Under the pieces are notes generated by a model. That model was not told where the DNA came from, searched no databases, and saw only the letters and a list, made by a program, of their open reading frames with translations. 55,739 bases of DNA from Escherichia phage vB_EcoS-683R6, in the sequence record ON470595, one strand, 5' to 3'. The translations under genes and the position numbers were made by a program. Of the stretch, positions 4,497-55,739 are shown piece by piece. Position 1 is the stretch's first letter; each line of letters opens with the position of its first letter.

Positions 4497-4593
4497 ATAA
4501 AAAAATAGAGTCTGTCGACATCCGCCAGACTCTACAGTACACACAGCAGTGCATCCTCGTCTTAAATCCGGCCTGGGGTCCTGGTGACCGGTG
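4497..4593 (-). ncRNA. mcaS: small RNA McaS (IsrA)
   Basis: Reverse strand matches remembered McaS 3' half (..GCACUGCUGUGUGUACUGUAGAGUCUGGCGGAUGUCGACAGACUCUAUUUUUUUAUG) with intrinsic terminator hairpin plus U-run; lies between abgR and smrA as in K-12. Ends approximate. Confidence 0.55.
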
Positions 4594-11458: not shown

Positions 11459-11580
11459 GCAGGTGAATGCAACGTCAAGCGATGGGCGTTGCGCTCCATA
11501 TTGTCTTACTTCCTTTTTTGAATTACTGCATAGCACAATTGATTCGTACGACGCCGACTTTGATGAGTCGGCTTTTTTTT
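11459..11580 (+). ncRNA. fnrS: FNR-regulated small RNA FnrS
   Basis: Sequence GCAGGTGAATGCAACGTCAAGCGATGGGCGTTGCGCTCCATATTGTC...GCCGACTTTGATGAGTCGGCTTTTTTTT matches remembered FnrS; ends in hairpin plus T8; between zntB and dbpA. Confidence 0.8.
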
Positions 11581-15881: not shown

Positions 15882-16142
15882 TCACGAGGACTGAAGTCTC
15901 TCGCAATTAAAATTTATCAGTTTTACTTTCTGCTCTCTGGAAACGGCTGCTTCTTTTTTACCTGAGAGCATTTTTTCGCATTCTGATTTCGTTAGTTTAG
16001 ATTTTGAATATCTTGTCCAGTTAGTAGGAGTGCCACCTTCCTTTTCAATAGTGGCGGTAATTTTATACATGAACACCTCCATTATTATTTCCAGTGGTTC
16101 GTTTATTCCATCTTTCGAGTGCTTCTTTTTCACTTCCACCAT
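15882..16142 (-). CDS. ydaC: Rac prophage protein YdaC-like (DUF1187)
   Basis: 86-aa ORF containing ..MYKITATIEKEGGTPTNWTRYSKSKLTKSECEKMLSGKKEAAVSREQKVKLINF; true start probably internal. Confidence 0.55.
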   Translation of the reverse strand: MVEVKKKHSKDGINEPLEIIMEVFMYKITATIEKEGGTPTNWTRYSKSKLTKSECEKMLSGKKEAAVSREQKVKLINFNCERLQSS

Positions 16143-17123: not shown

Positions 17124-19781
17124 TTGCATATTCCTTAGCCCAGCGGGGCAGTGATAACGTCTTAATAGCTGGCCATTCATCGGTATTGAGGCAGTCAGCC
17201 AGGGTTCGCAGATTGCGGTGATATTCCAGCTGACCTGCTAGTTTTGCTTCTTCGCCCATCATGAAAATTTCAACCGGATAACGTCCGCATTCAATAGTTG
17301 TGCTGGCAACCAGAAAAACGAAAGTTGGCTGCACTCCAAACTGTGCTTCATAACCGTCACTGTAGAATGCATCCTGAACGTGATAGCGGTAGTCGTAATA
17401 AGCGGTTTTGAATCGTTGAATATCCGCCGTAGTTTTCACGTCCATGATCCAGTGAAATTCAGGGATAATTTTGTCCGGACGGCACCGACACAAAATTCCT
17501 GTTTCAGGATCTTCCCAGTAAATTGATGATTCAGCGTGTCCGGCGCTTTCAACAAGCCATTGCCCCAGCGGCAAAGCCATAACGCTTTGATACATCAGTT
17601 CAATTTTCCGGCCTTCTTCCGCAGTGATAACCATTTTTCCTGTGCTTGCGCATTCCATCAGAAACGCTTTCTCTTCTTCTTTTCCGGCGTTTGTACGGCG
17701 GTTAAATTCAGGTGCTACGATAAAGCGGTTACTGAATTCTTCCGGTTCAAGTACCCGGCAGTGGAAAGCGGTTCCTAAATCGAGCGTTTTTGTCTTTGTG
17801 GTGTCCACGGGGGCATTTTTACGCCACAAATACAGTGCCGGAGTATCAGCAATGTCATCGAGCTGAGACTTACTGACACCGGGACCTGCGTGGTAATTCT
17901 CATTCGAAATTCCGTAATAAATACCTGGCTCTATGTCTTCTACGATTACGGGATCTGCGACTTCGCCAGTTTCATCACTGCAATCGCGATGCGGATCGCT
18001 GCCAGCATTCTCATTGTGCGGATGTTCAGCGCCTTCCATTTCCTCCGGATCATTTTCCTTAGCTTCAACCTGATTCTCTTCATCGAATGTTTCCTGGTTT
18101 GTTGCGTCGCCCATCACCGCACCACAGTCAGGGCAGTTATCCCCGCCAGTCTGGCCGCAGGCATTNNNNNNNNNNNNNNNNNNNNNNNTTCCGGTTCCTG
18201 TTGCACTACTGGCTCAGGTTGTTTCATATCCGGGCTGGTTTTTTCCGTTTCTGGCTGGTTCTGGTACACAGAATCGCGAGTCTGGATCCCCTTAACCCAT
18301 TTCGGATCGTTCGGGTCGCTAATTCCGTCAACAAATTCACCACGTGATGCAGCAAGCAATTTATCGGCATCGACAGGATTTTTTGATGGAATGTTTTTCC
18401 GAGCTTCATGGAGTTCTGCCCGCAGTTCCTGATATTTCGCATCAACAGAATTTACCTGTGACTGAGCATCCAGCGGCTGCGTGTCCTGATGATGTTTAGT
18501 TGCGTCCGGTTCCATTGTTTCAGCCTCTCCCTGTTCATCTGCCGTTGTTCCAGATGGTTGCAGTTTTTCTTCATCATCCTGTTTTCCTTCTTCTGTTACT
18601 CGCTGCGGCATCGGGGCAGAGGAGCGACCGCAGGCAATATCCACGATTTCCGGATCAGGGTTGGCATGATCGGTTTCAGTCAGTACTTTGTTCAGATATG
18701 CAGTGACGTGAGCGGGGATGACCTCGATCCCAATTGGTGCTTCTTTCACGGACGCAACCACGATGGCGCGGGAATAATCCAGCCCGCCAGGCATGGTGAT
18801 GAATTTGTCGCGGAAAACAGAAAAGGGCGGTTTATTTTCAGCGATAATTTCCTCAATGCGTTTAGCGTGTGCCGGATGAAGGTTATAGATGTCCACGTCC
18901 ATTGAACGGGCCAGTACGCCAGTGGCTATATCGCGCGCCAGTGACGTCAGATCGTGGACGAAACCTTCGCCGCGATCTGTGAGGTTCCCGCCGCCAGCAT
19001 TAGCACCGGAAGCCGTGCGAGTGATGCGTGAAACACGATTCCCTTTTCGCCATTCTTTTGTCAGAAGACCGCGATCAATGTGTTCGGTATCCAGCCAGGC
19101 TGAAATGAAATTCTTAAATTCATAGGGCTGATGTTTTTTAGTGATAGAGAAAACTGCCTTAATTGCATCAGTCAGGCGGAGCAGGGCGGCATTATCCAGA
19201 GTTGTCGGTTCTGCCATGCCGCGTATGGCCAACAGCAGATTCTGGACATAGCTGTTTTCCTGATCCATCTCAAGAGCAGTAATGTGTTCGCGTTGTTCTC
19301 GGGTGGCATGATGCAGGTATTTCCGATCCCCGGCCGCATACGTAAAAATGTGCAGAAGACGCTGTGTGAACCGCAAAGTGGCTACAGAGACTTCGCAATC
19401 CTGGCAATCCTCGTGGGCGTCTGCCTGCGCGTTTTCTTCCTGGCCTCCCGCCAGTTCGTTGGTTTCTTGAGCATTATCCTGGTGGTGAACGTCGTCTGGC
19501 GCTGCTCCCGGTTTTAGTTCCCATGTCATGGAGTCTTTGCTGAGTTGATAGCGTTCACTCCAGGTAAAATCGATCTCACCTTCAGGGGGAAGGTCATTAA
19601 CGACAGGAAAATTTGTGGCAACAGCTTTAAAATAGTTGCTCAGTTTTTTACCTGACTTAACGATCAGGTAGTCCAGAGTGGCACAGGTCGATTCAAAATC
19701 GTCGCTTGCCCACAGGACGACGTCAGGTTCACCGGATGATTTTTTCGCTTTCCGTAACAGGAAGAGTGGTTTTGTGCTCAT
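17116..19781 (-). CDS. recE: exodeoxyribonuclease VIII RecE; appears as a 555-aa and a 333-aa ORF joined at an ATGA overlap next to the 23-nt N run (18166-18188)
   Basis: C-terminal 333-aa ORF carries the exonuclease region (..[31 protein letters not shown]..); the acidic N-terminal 555-aa ORF ends 15 codons after the N run; span length is not a multiple of 3. Confidence 0.75.
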
Positions 19782-20403: not shown

Positions 20404-20624
20404 CACCATGACTCCGCCTTTACAGGTAAACCATTACGACCGAGGAAGACTTTAATCATGCAGTCAGTAATGCATGTTTTTGTGGTCAGGTTACGAATAT
20501 AAAGTTTTCGCTTTTTAATATTGTTTGCCGAGGCAATATATGTCCGGCCTTCATGAAGAACATAGTCACCAGGAGTCACACACTGACGTGGTATTTCATC
20601 AGTTCCGAAGTGATGTGCAATCAT
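20403..20624 (-). CDS. kilR: killing protein KilR (FtsZ inhibitor)
   Basis: [73 protein letters not shown] matches remembered KilR (73 aa). Confidence 0.85.
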
Positions 20625-20804
20625 AATTATCTCCATTTTTACAAATGAACTTTGTTGATGCGGTGCCTGGTGCCTCCAGGTGACTGCAACCAGTTAACAA
20701 TTACAGTCGGCTTTCCCACCCAAACCAATAAGGACTAACATGACTTTTAACTGTGCCGCGTGCGCTTAGCCGCATTCACCGCATCACAAAATTCACTTTA
20801 AAAA

Positions 20805-20850
20805 GGGCGGGCATCAGTCGAACTTCAAGAAAAAACTGATGCCGCCAAGA
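20805..20850 (-). terminator. hairpin (GGCGGCATCAGT...ACTGATGCCCGCC) followed by CTTTTT on the reverse strand; possible leftward-operon terminator (tL-like)
   Basis: 12-bp near-perfect inverted repeat with 15-nt loop and downstream U-tract on the minus strand, between ydaF and kilR. Confidence 0.35.
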
Positions 20851-21044
20851 CTACACATAGCAGTGTTGTTATCCACAACCGGAGGCGCACTCCCACCATT
20901 TAAATTTAACAGACAAGACCGACTCTTTATGGATATCGGAAATGCGCCTTCGTGTTGTGCCCGGTTTTATTTCACCACCTCCGGGCTTTGGTGGTTTCTG
21001 CTATACCCCTACAGCGAGAATATTGAATTAATCCAAATAATGGA

Positions 21045-21197
21045 TTAGCAAGTATTTCTGGCAAGCCAGCGACGTGCGCCTGTTTCTGTTTTAAATGTTT
21101 TGCTTTTGGTATACGTCATAGCAGTGAACGTTCCATCTTGGTTAGGGAACACGCCGCACACCATGGATTCGTTATTGCCGAGGTCGATTTTTTGCAT
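21045..21197 (-). CDS. ydaF: small protein YdaF
   Basis: Hand translation: MQKIDLGNNESMVCGVFPNQDGTFTAMTYTKSKTFKTETGARRWLARNTC (50 aa), below the ORF-track cutoff. Confidence 0.6.
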   Translation of the reverse strand: MQKIDLGNNESMVCGVFPNQDGTFTAMTYTKSKTFKTETGARRWLARNTC

Positions 21198-24637: not shown

Positions 24638-25423
24638 ATGGAGACTGTTTTTGACGCACTGAAAGCAATGGGAAAAGCCACGTCGGTAGAACTGGCTGCG
24701 CGACTTGATATCAGTCGTGAAGAGGTACTGAACNNNNNNNNNNNNNNNNNNNNNNNNNAGCTGTGGGAGCTGAAAAAGGCTGGTTTCGTTGATAAAAGCG
24801 TATACACCTGGCGTGTGGCTGATAACAACGTTCAGCAGGAACAGCCAGAGCAGGCAGAACCGCCGGAAGAAACCACCACGGCAACAGTCGCGAAAATTTC
24901 GGAGTGCGATTTAACTGCGACGATTGAACAACGTGGACCACAAACGGCGGATGAGTTGGCTACATGGTTCGGTACCACATCACGCAAAGTGGCTTCAACG
25001 CTGGCAATGGCAATCAGCAAAGGTCGTCTGATTCGCGTTAATCAGAACGGTAAATTTCGTTACTGCATACCGGGCGATAATTTACCAGCAAAGCCGAAAG
25101 CTGCATCGGTAACGGAAACTGATTTTAAAGCCTTTCCTCAGCCAGCAGATGTTGCGTTACCAGTACAGGAAGCTGCAACACAGGAAGATATTAAAACAGA
25201 AACTGTGGCGGACATTGTGCAGTCGCTGCCATCGTTTACTGAAACGCGAGCTGATGACCTGATTTTGCCATCGCTGCATATGGCAAACCGCGAACTGCGT
25301 CGGGCGAAAAATCATGTCCAGAAGTGGGAGCGAGTCTGCGCCGCGCTGCGGGAGCTGAACAAGCACCGGGATATTGTTCGACAGATTGCTGATTCTTCCC
25401 GCCGTGTTGTATCGGAAAAGTGA
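24638..25423 (+). CDS. ydaW: YdaW-like prophage protein (contains a 25-nt N run at 24734-24758)
   Basis: ORF with GGAGG RBS upstream of ATG 24638; N-terminal winged-helix-like region; reading frame appears preserved across the Ns. Confidence 0.6.
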
Positions 25424-25438: not shown

Positions 25439-25870
25439 ATGGCAAAAGTATTTACACAAGAAGAGCGGGAAAAAATTAAAGGGCAGGTTGTTGAGCTAGT
25501 ACGCCGGAGTGGACGCGAGACGTTACGACAACTGGAGGCCAAGACAGGTGCGACAAGATATCTGATGAGCGTTCTCGCCAGAGAGCTGGTTGCCAGTGGC
25601 GATGTATACAACTCTGGTTACGGGTTATTCCCGTCTGAACAGGCTCGTAAGGACTGGCAAAATGCCCGCAAAAAACTATCCAGGGCAAAGGTGAAGAAAC
25701 CATCTGTGGTTGATCCGGACCTTATCTGGTCATTACCAGACGGAGAAATACGCCGCTACGACAGGCGTCTGAACATAATCTGTCGCGAGTGCCGGAAGAG
25801 TGAAGTTATGCAGCGTGTGCTGGCGTTTTATCAGAATGGTTTTCGAGAGAGGCTTGGAGATCAGGGATGA
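25439..25870 (+). CDS. hypothetical prophage protein (basic, about 143 aa)
   Basis: ORF with GGAGG RBS 7 nt upstream of ATG 25439; no recognisable motif. Confidence 0.5.
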   Translation: MAKVFTQEEREKIKGQVVELVRRSGRETLRQLEAKTGATRYLMSVLARELVASGDVYNSGYGLFPSEQARKDWQNARKKLSRAKVKKPSVVDPDLIWSLPDGEIRRYDRRLNIICRECRKSEVMQRVLAFYQNGFRERLGDQG

Positions 25871-26063
25871 ATAGAACGATGAAGGATGGAAGCTACATAT
25901 TCTCGGTACTAAGATTTATTTTTCTGACACAAAATGACCATTTGGCGTTACATAATCCCAAAAAAACGTATCAAAAATCTCAAAATGCGTTACGATTAGA
26001 GAGTATTTTGATTCTGCGTGCTCATTTTTTGATTGCTGTGGCTTTTTGTTGTGGGAGTGTTGA

Positions 26064-27218
26064 ATGGATTATTTATCAGAAGTGTTAAAAATCATTGAAG
26101 GTGCAACAAAGGCAAATGCTTCGATGGCTAGTAATTATGCTGGGTTGCTGGCAGATAAGCTCGAACAAAAAGGGGAGGTCAAGCAAGCCAGAATGATAAG
26201 AGAAAGGTTGCTTAGAGCTCCCCAGGCGTTGGCAGGAGCTCAAAGGGCTGGAGGTGGGATATCTCTGGGCTCATTACCGGTAGATATTGATAGTCGACTC
26301 AACACTGTTGATGTCAGTTATCCTAAATTAGACAGTTCAGAGATTTTTCTGCCTGCAGCAATCAGTACCCGTGTTGAAGAGTTTATCACTAATGTTCAAC
26401 GTTATGATGAGTTTGTTAAAGCTGATGCAGCATTGCCGAGTCGTATGCTCGTGTATGGAAAGCCAGGAACAGGTAAGACTATGTTATCTAAGTACATCGC
26501 TACCCGCTTAGATTTTCCACTTCTTACAGTGCGTTGCGATACTTTGATTAGTAGTTTATTGGGACAAACCAGCAAAAATCTTAGACAGGTTTTCGATTAT
26601 GTAATGCAGAGGCCATCAGTGCTTTTTTTAGACGAATTTGATGCTTTAGCTGGAGCAAGAGGTAATGAGAGAGATATAGGTGAGCTTCAGCGAGTTGTCA
26701 TTTCACTATTGCAGAATATGGATGCGGCATCAGAGGATACGGTAATTATTGCCTCAACTAACCATGAGCAACTTCTGGATCCTGCAATCTGGAGGCGATT
26801 TAGCTTCAGAATTCCAATGCCTCTGCCTGACATACATCAGAGAGAGTTAATTTGGAAAAATCGTTTAAAGAATATGATATGTAGCGATCTAGATTTAAGT
26901 GATTTATCAAGAAAATCGGAAGGATTATCCGGAGCAATAATTGAACAGGTGAGCTTGGATGCACGTAGGGATGCAGTTATTGAAGGTGCAAGTGTGATAA
27001 ATCACCATAAATTGTATAGGCGTTTGTATCTTGCTCAATCGCTTATGGAAGGTGTAAATTTAAGCACTTACGAAGATGAAATTCGTTGGTTACGTTCTAA
27101 AGATAAAAAATTATTTTCTATCAGAGTTCTTGCTAATTTGTACAAACTTACATCAAGAGTAATTTCAAACATTCTGAAGGAGTCAGGAGCATATGAGCAG
27201 AAGGGGTACACAGTTTAG
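26064..27218 (+). CDS. classical-clade AAA+ ATPase (candidate defence-module component)
   Basis: 384 aa; Walker A GKPGTGKT (about 26458-26481), Walker B VLFLDEFD, sensor-1 ASTN, SRH-like DPAIWRRFSF; AT-rich codon usage unlike flanking phage genes. Confidence 0.8.
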   Translation: MDYLSEVLKIIEGATKANASMASNYAGLLADKLEQKGEVKQARMIRERLLRAPQALAGAQRAGGGISLGSLPVDIDSRLNTVDVSYPKLDSSEIFLPAAISTRVEEFITNVQRYDEFVKADAALPSRMLVYGKPGTGKTMLSKYIATRLDFPLLTVRCDTLISSLLGQTSKNLRQVFDYVMQRPSVLFLDEFDALAGARGNERDIGELQRVVISLLQNMDAASEDTVIIASTNHEQLLDPAIWRRFSFRIPMPLPDIHQRELIWKNRLKNMICSDLDLSDLSRKSEGLSGAIIEQVSLDARRDAVIEGASVINHHKLYRRLYLAQSLMEGVNLSTYEDEIRWLRSKDKKLFSIRVLANLYKLTSRVISNILKESGAYEQKGYTV

Positions 27219-29457
27219 TAACGCAAAAGTTACAAACCCAATGTTAAGAATCCCTTTTTCCAGTAGTGACTTGGGTGCAATAGTAAACGCTGGCGGTGGG
27301 GCAAAGGTATTGGTTGATGTAACAGCCGAATATAGACAAGGGCTAGTAAGAAATTTAACAACCAGTAAACATTATTTAGAATCCAAACTTTCAGAGTACC
27401 CTGGAAGCTTGGGTACTTTGGTTTTCAAATTAAGAGACCAGGGAATAGCCAAAACGCATAGGCCGAACAAAATTGCTCAAGAGGCTGGATTGCAAAATGC
27501 CGGTCATGCCAAAATAGATGAAATGTTGGTTGCTGCTCATGCCGGCTGTTTTGACGTATTAGAGTCAGTCATTTTACATCGGAATATTAAAGCGATTTTG
27601 GCTAATCTAAGCGCGATTGAGCGCATTGAACCTTGGGATGAGAATAGGAAGGTTCCAGGAGGCACTGATGGTTTGTTTGAATCATCAAACATCCTTGTAC
27701 GACTATTTGAGTACACAGGTGAAGATGCAACTTACAACAACTATGAAAACGTTATTTCTATATTAGAACAACACGGAGTTAAATATGATGAGATTAGACA
27801 AAAATGTGGTCTTCCCTTATTAAGGATAATGGATTTATCCCCAAATGATAGATATATATTAGACATTCTCATTGATTACCCGGGTATAAGAACGTTAATT
27901 CCTGAACCAAAATATTCAGCATTCCCGGTTAGTGTAAGTGATTCTGTTGGCATTGAAACAAATAGCTTTCCCGTACCATCAGAAGAATTACCCATTGTTG
28001 CTGTATTTGACACTGGGGTAAGCCCCATCGCGGCAACAATTACTCCTTGGGTAGTGAGTAGGGAAACATACGTAATTCCTCCTGATACGAGTTATGAACA
28101 TGGGACTATGGTGTCTTCATTGATATCAGGCGCTCATTTTTTAAATGACAATCATCCATGGATTCCTGATACAAAATCTAAAATCCATGATGTTTGTGCC
28201 TTAGATGAAAATGGATCTTATATATCAGATTTAATTCTGAGGCTAGCAGATGCTGTAAATAAAAGACCAGATATAAAAGTCTGGAATTTGTCTTTGGGAG
28301 GCGGACCATGTAATGAGCAGACGTTTAGTGATTTTGCGATGGAGTTAGATCGGCTCAGCGATAAATTTGGTATTTTGTTTGTAGTTGCTGCAGGTAATTA
28401 TGTAGATGAACCTATACGTACATGGCCAAATCCTGATCCGCTTGGAGGTGCTGATTTAATTTCCTCTCCTGGAGAGTCAGTCCGAGCACTAACAGTTGGT
28501 TCAGTTTCTCATATGGAAGCTAATGATGCTTTAAGTGAAATTGGAACACCGACACCATATACTCGTCGTGGCCCTGGGCCTGTATTTACTCCAAAGCCAG
28601 ATATAATCCATGCTGGCGGTGGGGTTCATAGACCTTGGAATGTAGGAGCAAGCAGTTTAAAGGTCGTAGGGCCAGATAATAGGCTTTGCTCTAATTTTGG
28701 TACTAGTTTTGCTGCTCCAATTGTGGCAAGTTTAGCTGCGCATACATGGCAGAGAATAGCCACTAATACAGACTTTAATGTTTCACCATCATTGATTAAA
28801 GCATTATTAATTCATTCCGCTCAATTATCTTCTCCTGATTACTCGCCAAGTGAAAGACGCTATTTGGGAGCGGGAATTCCTAATGAAGTTATTGAGACCT
28901 TATATGATAGTGATGATAGGTTTACTCTGATTTTCCAAACATTCTTGGTTCCTGGGGTGAGGTGGAGAAAGGATAACTATCCCATACCATCGGCACTTAT
29001 TCAAAATGGAAAATTTAAAGGTGAGATTGTAATTACTGCTGCATATGCACCACCACTGAACCCTAATGCCGGCAGTGAATATGTTCGCGCGAACGTAGAG
29101 CTAAGTTTTGGCTTAATTGAGAATAATACTATAAAAGGAAAAGTGCCTATGGAAGGAGAAAACGGTCAATCTGGATATGAGAGAGCTCAAATTGAGCATG
29201 GTGGAAAGTGGTCACCAGTAAAAATTCATCGCAAGGCATTTAATAAAGGAATTACTTCGGGTAACTGGGCTCTTCAGGCTAAAACAACGTTGAGAGCGAA
29301 TGAACCGGCCTTAATGGAGCCTTTACCTGTAACTATTGTAGTAACTTTAAAATCATTAGATGGAAACACACAAGTTTATGCTGATGGCGTAAGAGCTTTA
29401 AATGCTAATAACTGGGCTCACTATCCATTGCCTGCTCGTGTGCCAGTTTCCGTATAA
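27193..29457 (+). CDS. subtilisin-like (S8 family) serine protease, multi-domain (candidate defence-module effector)
   Basis: 754 aa; catalytic triad in D-H-S order: AVFDTGVS (about 28006-28029), YEHGTMVSS (about 28093-28119), GTSFAAPIVA (about 28699-28728); overlaps the ATPase ORF by 26 nt (alternative ATG at 27238). Confidence 0.8.
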   Translation: MSRRGTQFSNAKVTNPMLRIPFSSSDLGAIVNAGGGAKVLVDVTAEYRQGLVRNLTTSKHYLESKLSEYPGSLGTLVFKLRDQGIAKTHRPNKIAQEAGLQNAGHAKIDEMLVAAHAGCFDVLESVILHRNIKAILANLSAIERIEPWDENRKVPGGTDGLFESSNILVRLFEYTGEDATYNNYENVISILEQHGVKYDEIRQKCGLPLLRIMDLSPNDRYILDILIDYPGIRTLIPEPKYSAFPVSVSDSVGIETNSFPVPSEELPIVAVFDTGVSPIAATITPWVVSRETYVIPPDTSYEHGTMVSSLISGAHFLNDNHPWIPDTKSKIHDVCALDENGSYISDLILRLADAVNKRPDIKVWNLSLGGGPCNEQTFSDFAMELDRLSDKFGILFVVAAGNYVDEPIRTWPNPDPLGGADLISSPGESVRALTVGSVSHMEANDALSEIGTPTPYTRRGPGPVFTPKPDIIHAGGGVHRPWNVGASSLKVVGPDNRLCSNFGTSFAAPIVASLAAHTWQRIATNTDFNVSPSLIKALLIHSAQLSSPDYSPSERRYLGAGIPNEVIETLYDSDDRFTLIFQTFLVPGVRWRKDNYPIPSALIQNGKFKGEIVITAAYAPPLNPNAGSEYVRANVELSFGLIENNTIKGKVPMEGENGQSGYERAQIEHGGKWSPVKIHRKAFNKGITSGNWALQAKTTLRANEPALMEPLPVTIVVTLKSLDGNTQVYADGVRALNANNWAHYPLPARVPVSV

Positions 29458-29471
29458 CAACTATATAAATC

Positions 29472-29500
29472 AAACCCGCTGTAGCGGGTTTGATTTATTT
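29472..29500 (+). terminator. intrinsic terminator immediately after the protease gene
   Basis: AAACCCGC-TGTA-GCGGGTTT hairpin followed by GATTTATTTG. Confidence 0.7.
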
Positions 29501-29870
29501 GTGGGTGTGTTTTATAAAAATACCGCCCATACACAACAAAATACAAAAAGTATTATAGATAAAAAAGGAACGTAATGTGCAGATTTGTTGTTTTCCATAT
29601 TTACTCACCTTAATATGATTAACCCTGATAGGGTTGTTATTTCAGCGGTTTTCAAATGAGATATTATGGTGATCTGGCAGATTTGCATAACATTAAAATT
29701 TAATTTGTTTAACCGCTTTTAATAATAAGCGTTGTTTGTATCCCAGCAATCTGTTTTTTGGTTTTTATTCCATTAAGGTGGGGCTTTACACTGGAGCCAG
29801 TTTATTTATACTTCATACGTCAGCCTGAACAACTGGCATCTGCTGCGCTGCGCCATCGAGAGATTAAGAA

Positions 29871-31652: not shown

Positions 31653-31728
<76 letters not shown>

Positions 31729-31731
31729 TAT

Positions 31732-31806
<75 letters not shown>

Positions 31807-52391: not shown

Positions 52392-53086
52392 ATGACAGAG
52401 ACAGAATCAGCGATTCTGGCGCACGCCCGGCGATGTGCGCCAGCGGAGTCGTGCGGCTTCGTGGTGAGAACGTCGGAAGGGGAAAGATATTTTCCCTGCG
52501 TGAATATCTCCGGTGAGCCGGAGGAGTATTTCCGGATGTCGCCGGAGGACTGGCTGCGGGCAGAGATGCAGGGTGAGATTGTGGCGCTGGTCCACAGCCA
52601 CCCCGGTGGTATGCCCTGGCTGAGTGAGACCGACCGGCGGCTGCAGGTGCAGAGTGATTTGCCGTGGTGGCTGGTTTGCCGGGGAGCGATTCACAAGTTC
52701 CGCTGTGTGCCACATCTTTCCGGGCGGCGCTTTGAGCACGGGGTGACGGACTGTTACACGCTGTTCCGGGATGCTTACCATCTGGCGGGNNNNNNNNNNN
52801 NNNNNNNNNNNNNNNNNNNNNNNNNNNNNNNNNNNNNNNNNNNNNNGCGGCGCAGCCGGGCGATGTGCTGCTGTGCTGTTTTGGTTCATCGGTGCCGAAT
52901 CATGCCGCCATTTACTGTGGTGACAGCGAGCTGCTGCACCATATTCCTGAACAACTGAGTAAACGAGAGAGGTACACCGACAAATGGCAGCGACGCACAC
53001 ACTCCCTCTGGCGTCACCGGGCATGGCACGCATCTGCCTTTACGGGGATTTACAACGATTTGGCCGCCGCATCGACCTTCGAGTGA
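52392..53086 (+). CDS. K: tail assembly protein K (lambda gpK-like, JAMM/NlpC-P60 type); contains a 57-nt N run at 52790-52846
   Basis: N-terminal part MTETESAILAHARRCAPAESCGFVVRT.. with HSHPGG motif; C-terminal part in the 52865-53086 ORF; frame shifts across the Ns. Confidence 0.8.
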
Positions 53087-53691: not shown

Positions 53692-55739
53692 ATGGGTAAA
53701 GGCAGNNNNNNNNNNTCCCGCGCGAAGCGAAGGACAACCTGAAATCATCCCAGATGCTGAGCGTGATAGACGCCATCAGTGAAGGGCCGATTGAAGGTCC
53801 GGTGGATGGATTAAAAAGCGTGCTGCTGAACAGTACGCCGGTGCTGGACAGTGAGGGGAATACCAATATCTCCGGCGTCACGGTGGTGTTCCGGGCAGGT
53901 GAGCAGGAGCAGTCACCGCCGGAGGGATTTGAATCCTCCGGTTCCGAGACGGTGCTGGGTACGGAAGTGAAATATGAAACGCCGATCACCCGGACCATCA
54001 CGTCGGCAAACATCGACCGTCTGCGCTTTACCTTCGGTGTACAGGCACTGGTGGAAACCACCTCAAAGGGAGACAGGAATCCGTCGGAAGTCCGCCTGCT
54101 GGTTCAGATACAGCGTAACGGTGGCTGGGTGACGGAAAAAGACATCACCATTAAAGGCAAAACCACCTCACAGTATCTGGCATCGGTGGTGGTGGGTAAC
54201 CTGCCGCCGCGCCCGTTTAATATCCGGATGCGCAGGATGACGCCGGACAGCACCACAGACCAGCTGCAGAACAAAACGCTCTGGTCGTCATACACCGAGA
54301 TCATCGATGTGAAACAGTGCTACCCGAACACGGCACTGGTCGGCGTACAGGTGGACTCGGAGCAGTTCGGCAGCCAGCAGGTGAGCCGTAATTATCATCT
54401 TCGCGGGCGCATTCTGCAGGTGCCGTCGAACTATAACCCGCAGACGCGACAATACAGCGGTATCTGGGACGGAACGTTAAAACCAGCATACAGCAACAAC
54501 ATGGCCTGGTGTCTGTGGGATATGCTGACCCACCCGCGCTACGGCATGGGGAAACGTCTTGGTGCGGCGGATGTGGACAAATGGGCGCTGTATGTCATCG
54601 GCCAGTACTGCGACCAGTCAGTGCCGGACGGCTTTGGCGGCACGGAGCCGCGCATCACCTGTAATGCGTACCTGACCACACAGCGCAAGGCGTGGGATGT
54701 GCTCAGTGATTTCTGCTCGGCGATGCGCTGTATGCCGGTATGGAACGGGCAGACGCTGACGTTCGTGCAGGACCGACCGTCGGATAAGGTGTGGACCTAT
54801 AACCGCAGTAATGTGGTGATGCCGGATGATGGCGCGCCGTTCCGCTACAGCTTCAGCGCCCTGAAGGACCGCCATAATGCCGTTGAGGTGAACTGGATTG
54901 ACCCGAACAACGGCTGGGAGACGGCGACAGAGCTTGTTGAAGATACGCAGGCCATTGCCCGTTACGGTCGTAATGTCACGAAGATGGATGCCTTTGGCTG
55001 TACCAGCCGGGGGCAGGCACACCGCGCCGGGCTGTGGCTGATTAAAACGGAACTGCTGGAAACGCAGACCGTGGATTTCAGCGTGGGCGCAGAAGGGCTT
55101 CGCCATGTGCCGGGCGATGTTATTGAAATCTGCGATGATGACTATGCCGGTATCAGCACCGGTGGTCGCGTGTTGGCGGTGAACAGCCAGACCCGGACGC
55201 TGACGCTCGACCGTGAAATCACGCTGCCATCCTCCGGTACCACGCTGATAAGCCTGGTTGACGGAAGTGGCAATCCGGTCAGCGTGGAGGTTCAGTCCGT
55301 CACCGACGGACTTAAGGTGAAAGTGAATCGGGTTCCTGACGGCGTTGCAGAATACAGTGTGTGGGGGCTGAAGTTGCCGACGTTGCGTCAGCGCCTGTTC
55401 CGCTGTGTGAGTATCCGTGAGAACGATGACGGCACGTATGCCATCACTGCCGTGCAGCATGTACCGGAAAAAGAAGCCATCGTGGATAACGGGGCGCACT
55501 TTGACGGCGACCAGAGCGGCACGGTGAATGGTGTCACGCCGCCAGCGGTGCAGCACCTGACCGCCGAAGTCACCGCAGACAGCGGGGAATACCAGGTGCT
55601 GGCGCGCTGGGATACGCCGAAGGTGGTGAAGGGCGTGAGCTTTATGCTTCGCCTGACCGTGGCAGCGGATGACGGCAGTGAGCGGCTGGTCAGCACGGCC
55701 CGGACGACGGAAACCACATACCGCTTCACGCAACTGGCG
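53692..55739 (+). CDS. J: host specificity / central tail fibre protein J (lambda gpJ-like), 5' part; contains a 10-nt N run at 53706-53715; runs off the window end
   Basis: Translation ..REAKDNLKSSQMLSVIDAISEGPIEGPVDGLKSVLLNSTPVLDSEGNTNISGVTVVFRAGEQEQ.. is near-identical to remembered lambda J. Confidence 0.9.

Follow-up and report, generated by a model that had tools for sequence, protein, structure and literature searches.

The IetAS system was originally described on pTiC58 as a plasmid-stabilising toxin-antitoxin (TA) pair in which a protease is the toxin and an ATPase is the antitoxin (Yamamoto et al. 2009, as cited in PMC13069673). The same source credits IetAS with anti-phage defence that requires protease activity (Gao 2020, cited in PMC13069673). 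For homologues of these proteins, the activities of both IetA and IetS are reported to be necessary for defence, and a mutated ietA of the variant system ietHAS could not be cloned (PMC13069673). The sgiAT genes of SGI1 have been tested in E. coli, where toxicity of the protease shows within 30 min and is relieved by the ATPase. In the presence of an IncA/C plasmid these genes help to maintain SGI1, and sgiAT under its own promoter gives no post-segregational killing (PMC5006074). An IetAS system from B. cereus causes abortive infection that is triggered by SPbeta yosG (10.1101/2022.08.27.505566). In E. coli, IetAS is typically prophage-borne, and single systems including ietAS gave only limited activity against a 29-phage panel in the study of Wu et al. 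on ECOR52 (10.1101/2022.08.21.504612). The molecular mechanism of anti-phage activity by IetAS is reported to be unknown (PMC13069673; PMC9958689).

The window analysed here is the whole stretch of 55,739 nucleotides from Escherichia phage vB_EcoS-683R6 (record ON470595). It carries an ATPase gene and a protease gene that very probably constitute a canonical IetAS system (spelled IteA/IteS by NCBI), a two-gene, TA-type anti-phage module that sits as a moron in a Rac-like E. coli prophage. The first gene, iteA (ietA; positions 26064 to 27218, plus strand), codes for a 384-amino-acid AAA+ ATPase, and the second, iteS (ietS; 27193 to 29457, plus strand), codes for a 754-amino-acid S8 subtilase. 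These two co-directional ORFs overlap by 26 nt, with coordinates exactly as given in a first-pass annotation of this DNA, and the RefSeq annotation of an identical record has the same ORF boundaries.

That annotation proposed Pfam and defence-system profile searches as a check on both proteins, and Pfam, PADLOC and NCBIfam profiles returned matches. IetA matches Pfam AAA (PF00004, 2.6e-30), the PADLOC IetA model (PDLC02196, 8.9e-143, covering 1-374 of 374) and the NCBIfam IteA equivalog (NF042959, covering 1-367 of 367), the last with a score of 526.6 bits that passes the cut-off of 510 by a narrow margin. IetS matches Peptidase_S8 (PF00082, 4.6e-26, residues 268-544), the PADLOC IetS model over its full length (PDLC02197, 8.3e-301) and the NCBIfam IteS equivalog (NF042956, 1043.4 bits against a cut-off of 900, covering 1-747 of 747). 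RefSeq annotates loci with DNA 100% identical to the module as iteA/iteS, and among 5426 complete E. coli genomes 78 carry the module at 99% identity or higher, in each case on the chromosome. PHROG families also exist for both proteins. The pair is an already named system that is curated by PADLOC and NCBIfam and annotated by RefSeq, and it is not new. The earlier statement that the genes match no named defence system was mistaken, as both proteins give full-length matches above curated cut-offs. A literature search found no paper naming WP_000385105 or WP_001551050. A CBASS-associated TRIP13/Pch2 ATPase was also considered for the first gene and rejected: TRIP13 models reach only 2.4e-16 versus 8.9e-143 for IetA, and the neighbours here are DUF977 and IetS rather than HORMA and CD-NTase genes.

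The ATG of iteA at 26064 is preceded by the Shine-Dalgarno sequence GGGAG, and the ATG of iteS at 27193 is preceded by GAAGGAG/AGGAG. No Shine-Dalgarno sequence was seen for an alternative IetS start at Met17. IetA and IetS are produced from one translationally coupled transcript, and a single terminator located after iteS serves both genes. The terminator scan and RNA folding place this intrinsic-terminator-like hairpin and its T-rich tail at 29465 to 29507 on the plus strand. The 15-bp stem (29465-29498, core CCCGC-TGTA-GCGGG) starts 8 nt past the iteS stop codon. Its RNA fold has a predicted energy of -26 kcal/mol (z = -7.0) that was equalled by none of 200 shuffles, and the tail and 3' arm of the hairpin belong to prophage backbone that also occurs in another prophage (L002).

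The first-pass annotation had credited the pair with its own leader as well as its own terminator, and a leader of 193 nt is indeed present upstream of iteA (25871 to 26063, plus strand). The proximal ~125 nt of the leader include two GCGTTAC repeats and are kept in a Citrobacter locus (L007), with long identical runs in the alignment. No sigma-70 consensus promoter was found in the leader, where the sole candidate is a weak one (GACACA-19-CATAAT). The one ORF found upstream here, orf73, lacks conservation and probably does not encode a protein.

The locus resides in a Rac-like E. coli prophage that carries intR/xisR, is integrated next to ttcA and is excisable. A DnaC/IstB-like gene and DUF977 lie upstream of the pair, and DUF1367, YbcO and a DUF1133/antiterminator-Q-like gene lie downstream. 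These flanking genes agree with the earlier placement of the pair, with the replication genes on one side and the nin/Q region on the other. Homology junctions and a drop in GC content delimit a cargo segment of ~3.65 kb that holds IetAS (25835 to 29483, plus strand). On the left, homology to the DUF977 genes of other prophages stops near 25834, and on the right, homology to prophage L002, which carries different cargo, restarts near 29484 with 95% identity. GC content falls to ~0.40 across the segment and is 0.40 in both genes versus 0.49 upstream and 0.47 downstream. The AT-richness of the pair remarked on earlier is borne out by these values, except that AT-rich DNA downstream belongs to the prophage backbone. 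This downstream stretch (29484-29870) is common to a prophage with other cargo and lies outside the module.

The slot after the DUF977 gene contains different cargo in five other prophages, including a DUF262+AAA+hypothetical set and a C5-methyltransferase+ATPase set, which supports the suspicion that this is a cargo site. The locus is a clean example of lambdoid prophages swapping defence cargo at the slot after DUF977, with junctions at ~25835 and 29484.

The A-then-S adjacency is kept in four diverged relatives. Amino acid identities to IetA and IetS, respectively, are 91% and 84% for a relative from Citrobacter, about 59% and 57% for two from Pseudomonas, and 53% and 52% for one on an Acidovorax plasmid. 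The Acidovorax copy adjoins a Shedu nuclease and is located between IS21 copies. Co-occurrence of the two genes in prophages or defence islands had been named as a useful check, and the pair is indeed kept together in relatives and occupies a prophage slot here, while the copy of one relative lies beside Shedu.

By analogy with the described homologues, the IetS protein of this allele would probably be toxic and neutralised by IetA, and the allele would probably confer protease-dependent phage resistance. The original proposal for this locus was a role in abortive infection or exclusion, with the ATPase either gating the protease or feeding it. Because IetAS homologues defend against phage and the Bacillus homologue aborts infection, the defence part of this proposal seems well placed. 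Gating fits the genetics of the homologues, whereas feeding is without support. From the TA, defence and abortive-infection data on IetAS homologues, therefore, a defence module with an ATPase that gates a protease is supported.

In the mechanism that we propose, IetS would be the toxic effector, a cytoplasmic S8 serine protease that IetA keeps harmless in the uninfected cell. When phage infect, IetS would be freed from this control by one of their proteins or by a disturbance that they cause, whether IetA itself is diverted or inactivated or the IetA-IetS complex is the point of attack. The freed IetS would cut cellular and/or phage proteins, and the infected cell would stop growth or die before phage release. 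Such abortive infection would protect the lysogen population and hence the prophage. Expression of the module from the repressed prophage is an assumption of this scheme. We infer both how IetA might restrain IetS and what IetS might cleave. Most likely, IetA would act on a zymogen-like IetS by holding or remodelling its N-terminal modules, so that the active site is kept blocked and no substrate is fed.

The module might instead be mainly an addiction system that stabilises the prophage through post-segregational killing, with phage defence secondary or absent for this allele. The residence of the locus in an excisable prophage with intR/xisR would suit such a role, as would the first description of IetAS as a plasmid-stabilising TA pair (as cited in PMC13069673), the effect of sgiAT on SGI1 maintenance with an IncA/C plasmid (PMC5006074) and the limited anti-phage activity of single systems in Wu et al. 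(10.1101/2022.08.21.504612). However, post-segregational killing is precisely what sgiAT failed to produce under its own promoter (PMC5006074), a homologue has an abortive-infection phenotype (10.1101/2022.08.27.505566), and other prophages carry defence-type cargo in the same slot. Furthermore, the anti-phage label that NCBI and PADLOC give the family rests on experimental work. We consider a mainly addictive function to be possible but rather unlikely, and addiction and defence roles are in any case not exclusive.

Turning to the ATPase of the proposed defence module, all IetA motifs listed in the first-pass annotation are present. These are Walker A (GKPGTGKT, aa 132-139, nt 26457-26480), Walker B (LFLDEFD, aa 187-193, nt 26622-26642) and an SRH with RR fingers (DPAIWRRF, aa 239-246, nt 26778-26801). 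The IetA relatives compared retain the Walker A Lys, the DE of Walker B and the RR fingers. The best PDB match is p97 D2 (1e-53), the best matches as a group are p97/Cdc48 D2, PAN and FtsH, and the alignment with p97 D1/D2 covers Walker A/B, sensor 1 and the SRH with its arginine fingers. The ~100-aa N-domain has no match to any Pfam family, even at E<=10. Pore loop 1 (SLLG, nt 26553-26564) reads L165-L166-G167 in IetA versus W-F-G in p97 D2 and L-A-G in p97 D1, and five IetA sequences, the most distant of them at 53% identity, all read SSLLGQTS at this point. The aromatic-hydrophobic-Gly form of this loop, which provides substrate grip, is absent from IetA. The earlier description of IetA as an unfoldase-type ATPase is right about the classical-clade AAA motifs, but the unfoldase reading is insecure because the aromatic residue of pore loop 1 is missing.

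This loop also bears on the idea that IetA is a substrate-feeding unfoldase for IetS, such that the two proteins form an ATP-dependent machine like ClpXP or PAN-proteasome that degrades specific phage proteins. Placement of IetA in the classical AAA clade alongside p97/Cdc48 D2, PAN and FtsH is what such a machine would call for, and the translational coupling of the genes and the reported need for both activities in homologues (PMC13069673) are in keeping with it. In addition to the L-L-G loop, two observations make the idea improbable. Homologous IetS is toxic alone and is relieved by IetA, which is the opposite of what an obligate activator would do (PMC13069673, PMC5006074), and the fold predicted for IetS is a monomer-type subtilase with accessory domains rather than a self-compartmentalising chamber.

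The protease, IetS, carries all three motifs of the D-H-S subtilase triad that were recognised earlier. These are AVFDTGV with Asp273 (aa 270-276, nt 28000-28020), HGTMVSS with His303 (aa 303-309, nt 28099-28119) and GTSFAAP with Ser505 (aa 503-509, nt 28699-28719). Together with the oxyanion residue Asn402 (nt 28396-28398), these catalytic residues (D273, H303, N402 and S505) are invariant across 82 homologues. The flanks of ~267 N-terminal and ~210 C-terminal residues have no Pfam match at E<=10, in line with the absence of recognisable motifs reported earlier.

Structure prediction, which had been suggested for these flanks, gave an AlphaFold2 model of IetS with a pLDDT of 85.9 and a pTM of 0.89. 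The predicted domains are an N-terminal region (1-~260), the S8 core (268-~570) and a beta-sandwich (~575-740). The N-terminal region is modelled as two beta-alpha-beta-beta-alpha-beta modules (74-147 and 167-242) that appear propeptide-like. For residues 167-242, this propeptide-like role is proposed from the order of predicted secondary structures and from alignment lengths. In this model, IetS resembles a pro-subtilase that has not been processed: propeptide-like ferredoxin-fold modules come first, then the S8 core, and finally a beta-sandwich at the C-terminus.

The N-terminus of IetS (MSRRGTQFSNAKVTNPMLRIPFSS) has no hydrophobic core in a hydropathy test, which was used here rather than SignalP. 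Neither IetA nor IetS has a hydrophobic N-terminus or a 19-residue window above 1.6 on the Kyte-Doolittle scale, and no signal or TM segment was found by this measure; the IetS maximum of 1.48 falls at the catalytic Asp strand. Judged by its sequence, IetS is cytoplasmic, and the hydropathy check for a signal peptide speaks against a secreted protease. Although S8 proteases are commonly secreted and there are weak NCBIfam side matches to mycosin and EccA of type VII secretion, a role unrelated to defence is scarcely credible for the pair, be it as a subtilase (secreted or housekeeping) served by its own chaperone or as a protease of phage morphogenesis, given that neither protein has a signal peptide or TM segment by hydropathy, that the type VII matches are far below cut-offs (27.7 vs 278 bits and 24 vs 466), that the genes belong to the early region, a long way from those for the head, and that both the IetA and IetS equivalog cut-offs are passed.

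A more specific form of the gating model can be offered tentatively, although we would not bet on it. IetS might be a cytoplasmic zymogen whose two ferredoxin-fold N-modules serve as tethered propeptides, and IetA might be an ATP-dependent clamp or remodeller that docks these modules over the active site, rather than a processive unfoldase. This arrangement is compatible with, but not established by, the architecture predicted for IetS, the conservation of the L-L-G loop and the TA genetics in the literature. If it is true, a phage trigger would displace IetA and lead to self-processing of IetS and indiscriminate proteolysis. For a prophage, one switch would then be both a defence and an addiction device. 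The regulatory logic would also be new for AAA+/protease pairs, in that the ATPase would be a brake and not a feeder. Two new but modest details, the pro-subtilase layout predicted for IetS and the conservation of a non-aromatic pore loop in IetA, provide testable hypotheses for how an AAA+ ATPase might act as antitoxin to a protease.

Several known systems can be compared with this pair. IetA has Walker A/B, sensor 1, an SRH with Arg fingers and a lid domain in common with p97/Cdc48 D2, PAN and FtsH, but it has a single AAA module and a unique ~100-aa N-domain. It also differs from classical-clade unfoldases in having L-L-G rather than aromatic-hydrophobic-Gly in pore loop 1, and RR rather than R-P-G-R fingers. 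For the IetS model, the best structural matches are Tk-SP (3afg), KP-43 (1wmd) and pro-subtilisin E (3whi). As in these pro-subtilases, the S8 core of IetS is predicted to be preceded by a beta-alpha-beta-beta-alpha-beta module and followed by a beta-sandwich. However, they are secreted and self-processing, whereas IetS would be cytoplasmic and controlled by a partner ATPase, and IetS possesses one more N-terminal module as well as a long helix and is only 17-22% identical to them.

The IetAS variant ietHAS (Liu-DS4), which includes an SNF2 helicase, has the IetA and IetS components in common with this pair and shows protease-dependent defence with an antitoxin-like IetA (PMC13069673). It requires the third gene ietH, whereas no helicase gene adjoins the pair here. 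IetA/IetS of pTiC58 and SgiA/SgiT of SGI1 are likewise operons of mobile elements in which the gene for an AAA+ ATPase antitoxin precedes that for a subtilisin-like toxin. The elements in question are a plasmid and an integrative island instead of a prophage, and both systems have been described as serving to maintain their elements and not to defend against phage. The SGI1 and pTiC58 proteins are 50% (A) and 36% (S) identical to each other, Agrobacterium plasmid S8 matches to IetS here reach only ~27% identity over the core, and the SGI1 genes are 20 bp apart whereas those here overlap by 26 nt. The IetAS/IteAS system of Gao et al. (2020) has the same gene order, sizes, domain content and catalytic motifs as this pair, with no detectable difference, and the pair is a member of that system.

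The module comprises two co-directional genes on the plus strand, iteA (also ietA; 26064-27218), which codes for the 384-residue AAA+ ATPase IetA, and iteS (also ietS; 27193-29457), which codes for the 754-residue S8 protease IetS. A six-frame ORF list confirms the 26-nt overlap between them that the first-pass annotation had described. An internal start at Met17 of IetS would abolish this overlap, but it was rejected because inspection of the sequence revealed no Shine-Dalgarno element before that codon, and a good one precedes the ATG at 27193. The ATG of iteA is likewise preceded by a Shine-Dalgarno element, and thus the overlap is real.

All of the motifs quoted in the first-pass annotation lie at the expected places, including Walker A (residues 132-139), Walker B (187-193) and DPAIWRRF (239-246) of IetA, and the Asp (270-276), His (303-309) and Ser (503-509) boxes of IetS. 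The profile searches it had proposed identify both families, wherein IetA matches Pfam AAA (PF00004, 2.6e-30) and IetS matches Peptidase_S8 (PF00082, 4.6e-26) over residues 268-544. No Pfam family matches the IetA N-domain (the first ~100 residues) or either flank of the IetS protease domain, even at E-values up to 10.

The pair had been said to match no named system, and this is incorrect. The PADLOC search that had been suggested yields full-length matches to the IetA model (8.9e-143, 1-374 of 374) and to the IetS model (8.3e-301, residues 12-753 against model positions 3-748 of 749). The scores of 526.6 bits for IteA and 1043.4 bits for IteS, as NCBI spells these names, exceed the curated cut-offs of the NCBIfam equivalogs 'anti-phage ATPase IteA' (510 bits) and 'S8 family anti-phage peptidase IteS' (900 bits). 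Among 5426 complete E. coli genomes, 78 carry the 3394-bp segment at 99% identity or more; every copy is single and chromosomal, and the matching loci are already labelled iteA and iteS in RefSeq. Thus, judged from these matches, the pair is an ordinary, already annotated member of IetAS, a named and curated defence family. Readings as a TRIP13/CBASS component or as a type VII mycosin/EccA pair were rejected on score and context.

Strain ECOR52, the source of the ietAS tested by Wu et al., is absent among the 60 matches listed of the 78 genomes, and a literature search with both RefSeq protein accessions found no paper. In two of the 78 genomes, H124 (NZ_CP038505.1) and H127 (NZ_AP040205.1), iteS is annotated as an 'S8 family peptidase' plus a 'hypothetical protein' on DNA that is ~100% identical, which suggests a point disruption of iteS with iteA intact.

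The host element is, from its gene order, a Rac-like lambdoid prophage. In L001, a record identical to the window, the order is ttcA, intR-xisR-ralR-recT-recE-kilR-racR-ydaS-ydaT-ydaU-ydaV-DUF1627-DUF977 and iteA-iteS, followed by DUF1367-YbcO(DUF1364)-DUF1133, tRNA-Thr, tRNA-Gly, lysis genes, trkG, terminase and head/tail genes. The DUF1133 gene has a weak match to antiterminator Q. A DUF977 gene is present in 4169 of the 5426 E. coli genomes, and the slot that follows it holds different cargo in all five other prophages sampled: DUF262, AAA ATPase, hypothetical protein and Hok genes; QueH and HokD; a C5 DNA methyltransferase and an ATP-binding protein; an alpha/beta hydrolase; or small ORFs. 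This diversity supports the earlier description of a classic cargo site, and the slot is, by this comparison, a cargo-exchange hotspot of Rac-like and lambdoid prophages. Homology to the sampled prophages ends near 25834 and resumes in one of them (L002) at 29484 with 95% identity, which places the cargo segment at about 25835-29483. The AT-rich stretch at 29484-29870 belongs to the prophage backbone.

Several further features of these prophages and of the window were recorded. The DUF262, AAA ATPase and hypothetical protein trio (L002, 6622-9825) and the pair of C5-methyltransferase and 660-residue ATP-binding protein (L004, 6841-9856) resemble defence systems, either uncharacterised or of another type. 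In the Rac-like prophages L002, L004 and L006, sieB is annotated between kilR and ydaF; the corresponding position in L001 (14463-15004; window about 20526-21067) is an unannotated gap of ~540 bp that is AT-rich in the window. Rfam matches lie at 4497-4592 (minus strand) and at 11459-11576, 15886-16064 and 31653-31806 (plus strand), and Rfam places McaS and FnrS sRNAs in the chromosomal flank, the RalA antitoxin sRNA opposite ralR, and tRNA-Thr(TGT) and tRNA-Gly(TCC) downstream of the Q-like gene. Runs of masked bases occur at 18166-18188, 24734-24758, 52790-52846 and 53706-53715, the second of which falls within the DUF1627 gene, shortly before the module, so that the translated protein has X residues.

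The two genes have 40% GC, compared with 49% upstream and 47% downstream, which bears out the AT-richness noted previously. The module had also been credited with its own leader and terminator. A 15-bp hairpin with a T-rich tail begins 8 nt past the iteS stop codon (-26 kcal/mol, z = -7.0 by RNA folding), and the right cargo junction falls within it. A leader is also present; however, no consensus sigma-70 promoter was found in it upstream of iteA. The ~125 nt before iteA (25938-26063) are strongly conserved between E. coli and Citrobacter and contain two GCGTTAC repeats spaced by ~45 nt, a candidate operator or promoter element for the module.

The leader is filled by a 73-codon ORF (25867-26088, plus strand) whose start overlaps the DUF977 stop codon (ATGA), whose final 25 nt extend into iteA, and whose product matches phrog_9743 over its full length (1.5e-55). 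We rejected this ORF as a conserved third gene because its Citrobacter counterpart is interrupted and has diverged to 44% identity, far below the two module proteins, and because it is absent from the Pseudomonas and Acidovorax loci and is not annotated in RefSeq. It probably reflects a recurrent annotation error in a leader that does not code for protein.

The same gene order, with iteA immediately ahead of iteS, recurs in a Citrobacter contig (amino acid identities of 91% for IetA and 84% for IetS), two Pseudomonas genomes (about 59% and 57%) and an Acidovorax plasmid (53% and 52%). The plasmid copy, on p1-T1 of Acidovorax sp. T1 (L010, 5839-10423), has genes for a Shedu immune nuclease and an integrase as neighbours, and identical copies of IS21 stand at both ends of the segment. 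This layout has the look of a small, composite defence islet carried by a mobilisable plasmid. A scan of species-representative genomes returned three close loci only, since a single-protein query reaches only close relatives. A protein search recovered 297 IetS homologues at E-values of 1e-20 or lower, many named IteS, from Enterobacterales, Pseudomonas, Burkholderia, Comamonas and others. An 82-sequence alignment shows D273, H303, N402 and S505 of IetS to be invariant, along with many positions in the two flanks. PHROGs contains full-length families for the two proteins. The module DNA has no megablast match in 50,697 phage records, which yield at the protein level only distant S8 proteases (22-26% identity), and so the module is seen in prophages of bacterial genomes rather than among the deposited genomes of phages.

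A confident AlphaFold2 model of IetS, derived from the 82-sequence alignment (pLDDT 85.9, pTM 0.89), predicts a long N-terminal helix and two beta-alpha-beta-beta-alpha-beta modules (residues 74-147 and 167-242), then the S8 core and a C-terminal beta-sandwich (about 575-740). The predicted fold suggests that IetS resembles an unprocessed zymogen. A search of the PDB by sequence found no deposited IetS structure, only generic subtilases at about 1e-5. Together with the hydropathy and pore-loop features described below, this anatomy, which is relevant to mechanism, is the new, if modest, part of the analysis.

Work on homologues has demonstrated toxicity, its neutralisation, defence, a protease requirement, and abortive infection in response to a phage trigger. 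The protease of the SGI1 homologue is toxic in E. coli within 30 minutes and is counteracted by its ATPase (PMC5006074), and in ietHAS, a helicase-containing variant, mutated ietA resisted cloning (PMC13069673). Protease activity is critical for IetAS defence, as PMC13069673 relates, citing Gao 2020. B. cereus IetAS gives an abortive-infection phenotype, and SPbeta yosG triggers its toxicity (10.1101/2022.08.27.505566). The ietAS cloned from ECOR52, which is located in integrated elements such as prophages, has limited activity alone (10.1101/2022.08.21.504612).

The module is most likely a toxin-antitoxin-type abortive-infection device. IetA would be synthesised first from a translationally coupled message and would restrain IetS in an ATP-dependent manner, probably by way of the N-terminal modules that resemble propeptides. 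A phage product would lift this restraint, and freed IetS would cleave cellular and/or phage proteins, thereby aborting the infection. We infer the transfer of homologue behaviour to the present allele, the mode of restraint and the substrates. Judged from the homologues, the first-pass proposal of an abortive-infection or exclusion module with an ATPase controlling a protease was correctly reasoned.

The pair might instead serve mainly to addict the host to the prophage, a possible but less probable role that is compatible with defence and does not exclude it. The original description of IetAS was of a toxin-antitoxin that stabilises plasmids, with a serine protease toxin and an ATPase antitoxin, according to PMC13069673, which cites Yamamoto 2009. 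It is distinctly unlikely that IetA feeds substrates to IetS in an ATP-dependent protease machine. The ATPase module does align with p97 D1 and D2 (1e-53), PAN and FtsH, as the label 'unfoldase-type' would suggest. However, pore loop 1 reads S-L-L-G (residues 164-167; 26553-26564) and lacks an aromatic residue, with L-L-G where p97 D2 has W-F-G, and RR stands in place of RPGR at the arginine fingers. Five IetA sequences, the most distant at 53% identity, share both features unchanged, and thus the unfoldase assignment is not secure. The feeder arrangement is disfavoured by this loop and by the toxin-antitoxin genetics. A secreted or morphogenetic protease, the former named at the outset as a reading that would count against defence, is rejected as very improbable. 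The secreted reading fails on score and context; hydropathy reveals no signal-like or membrane-spanning segment in either protein, and both are therefore predicted to be cytoplasmic, which removes that objection to defence.

The pair belongs to a system whose anti-phage mechanism is described as unknown in PMC13069673. Its lasting interest lies in that mechanism and in a predicted architecture that suggests how an AAA+ ATPase might act as antitoxin to a protease.
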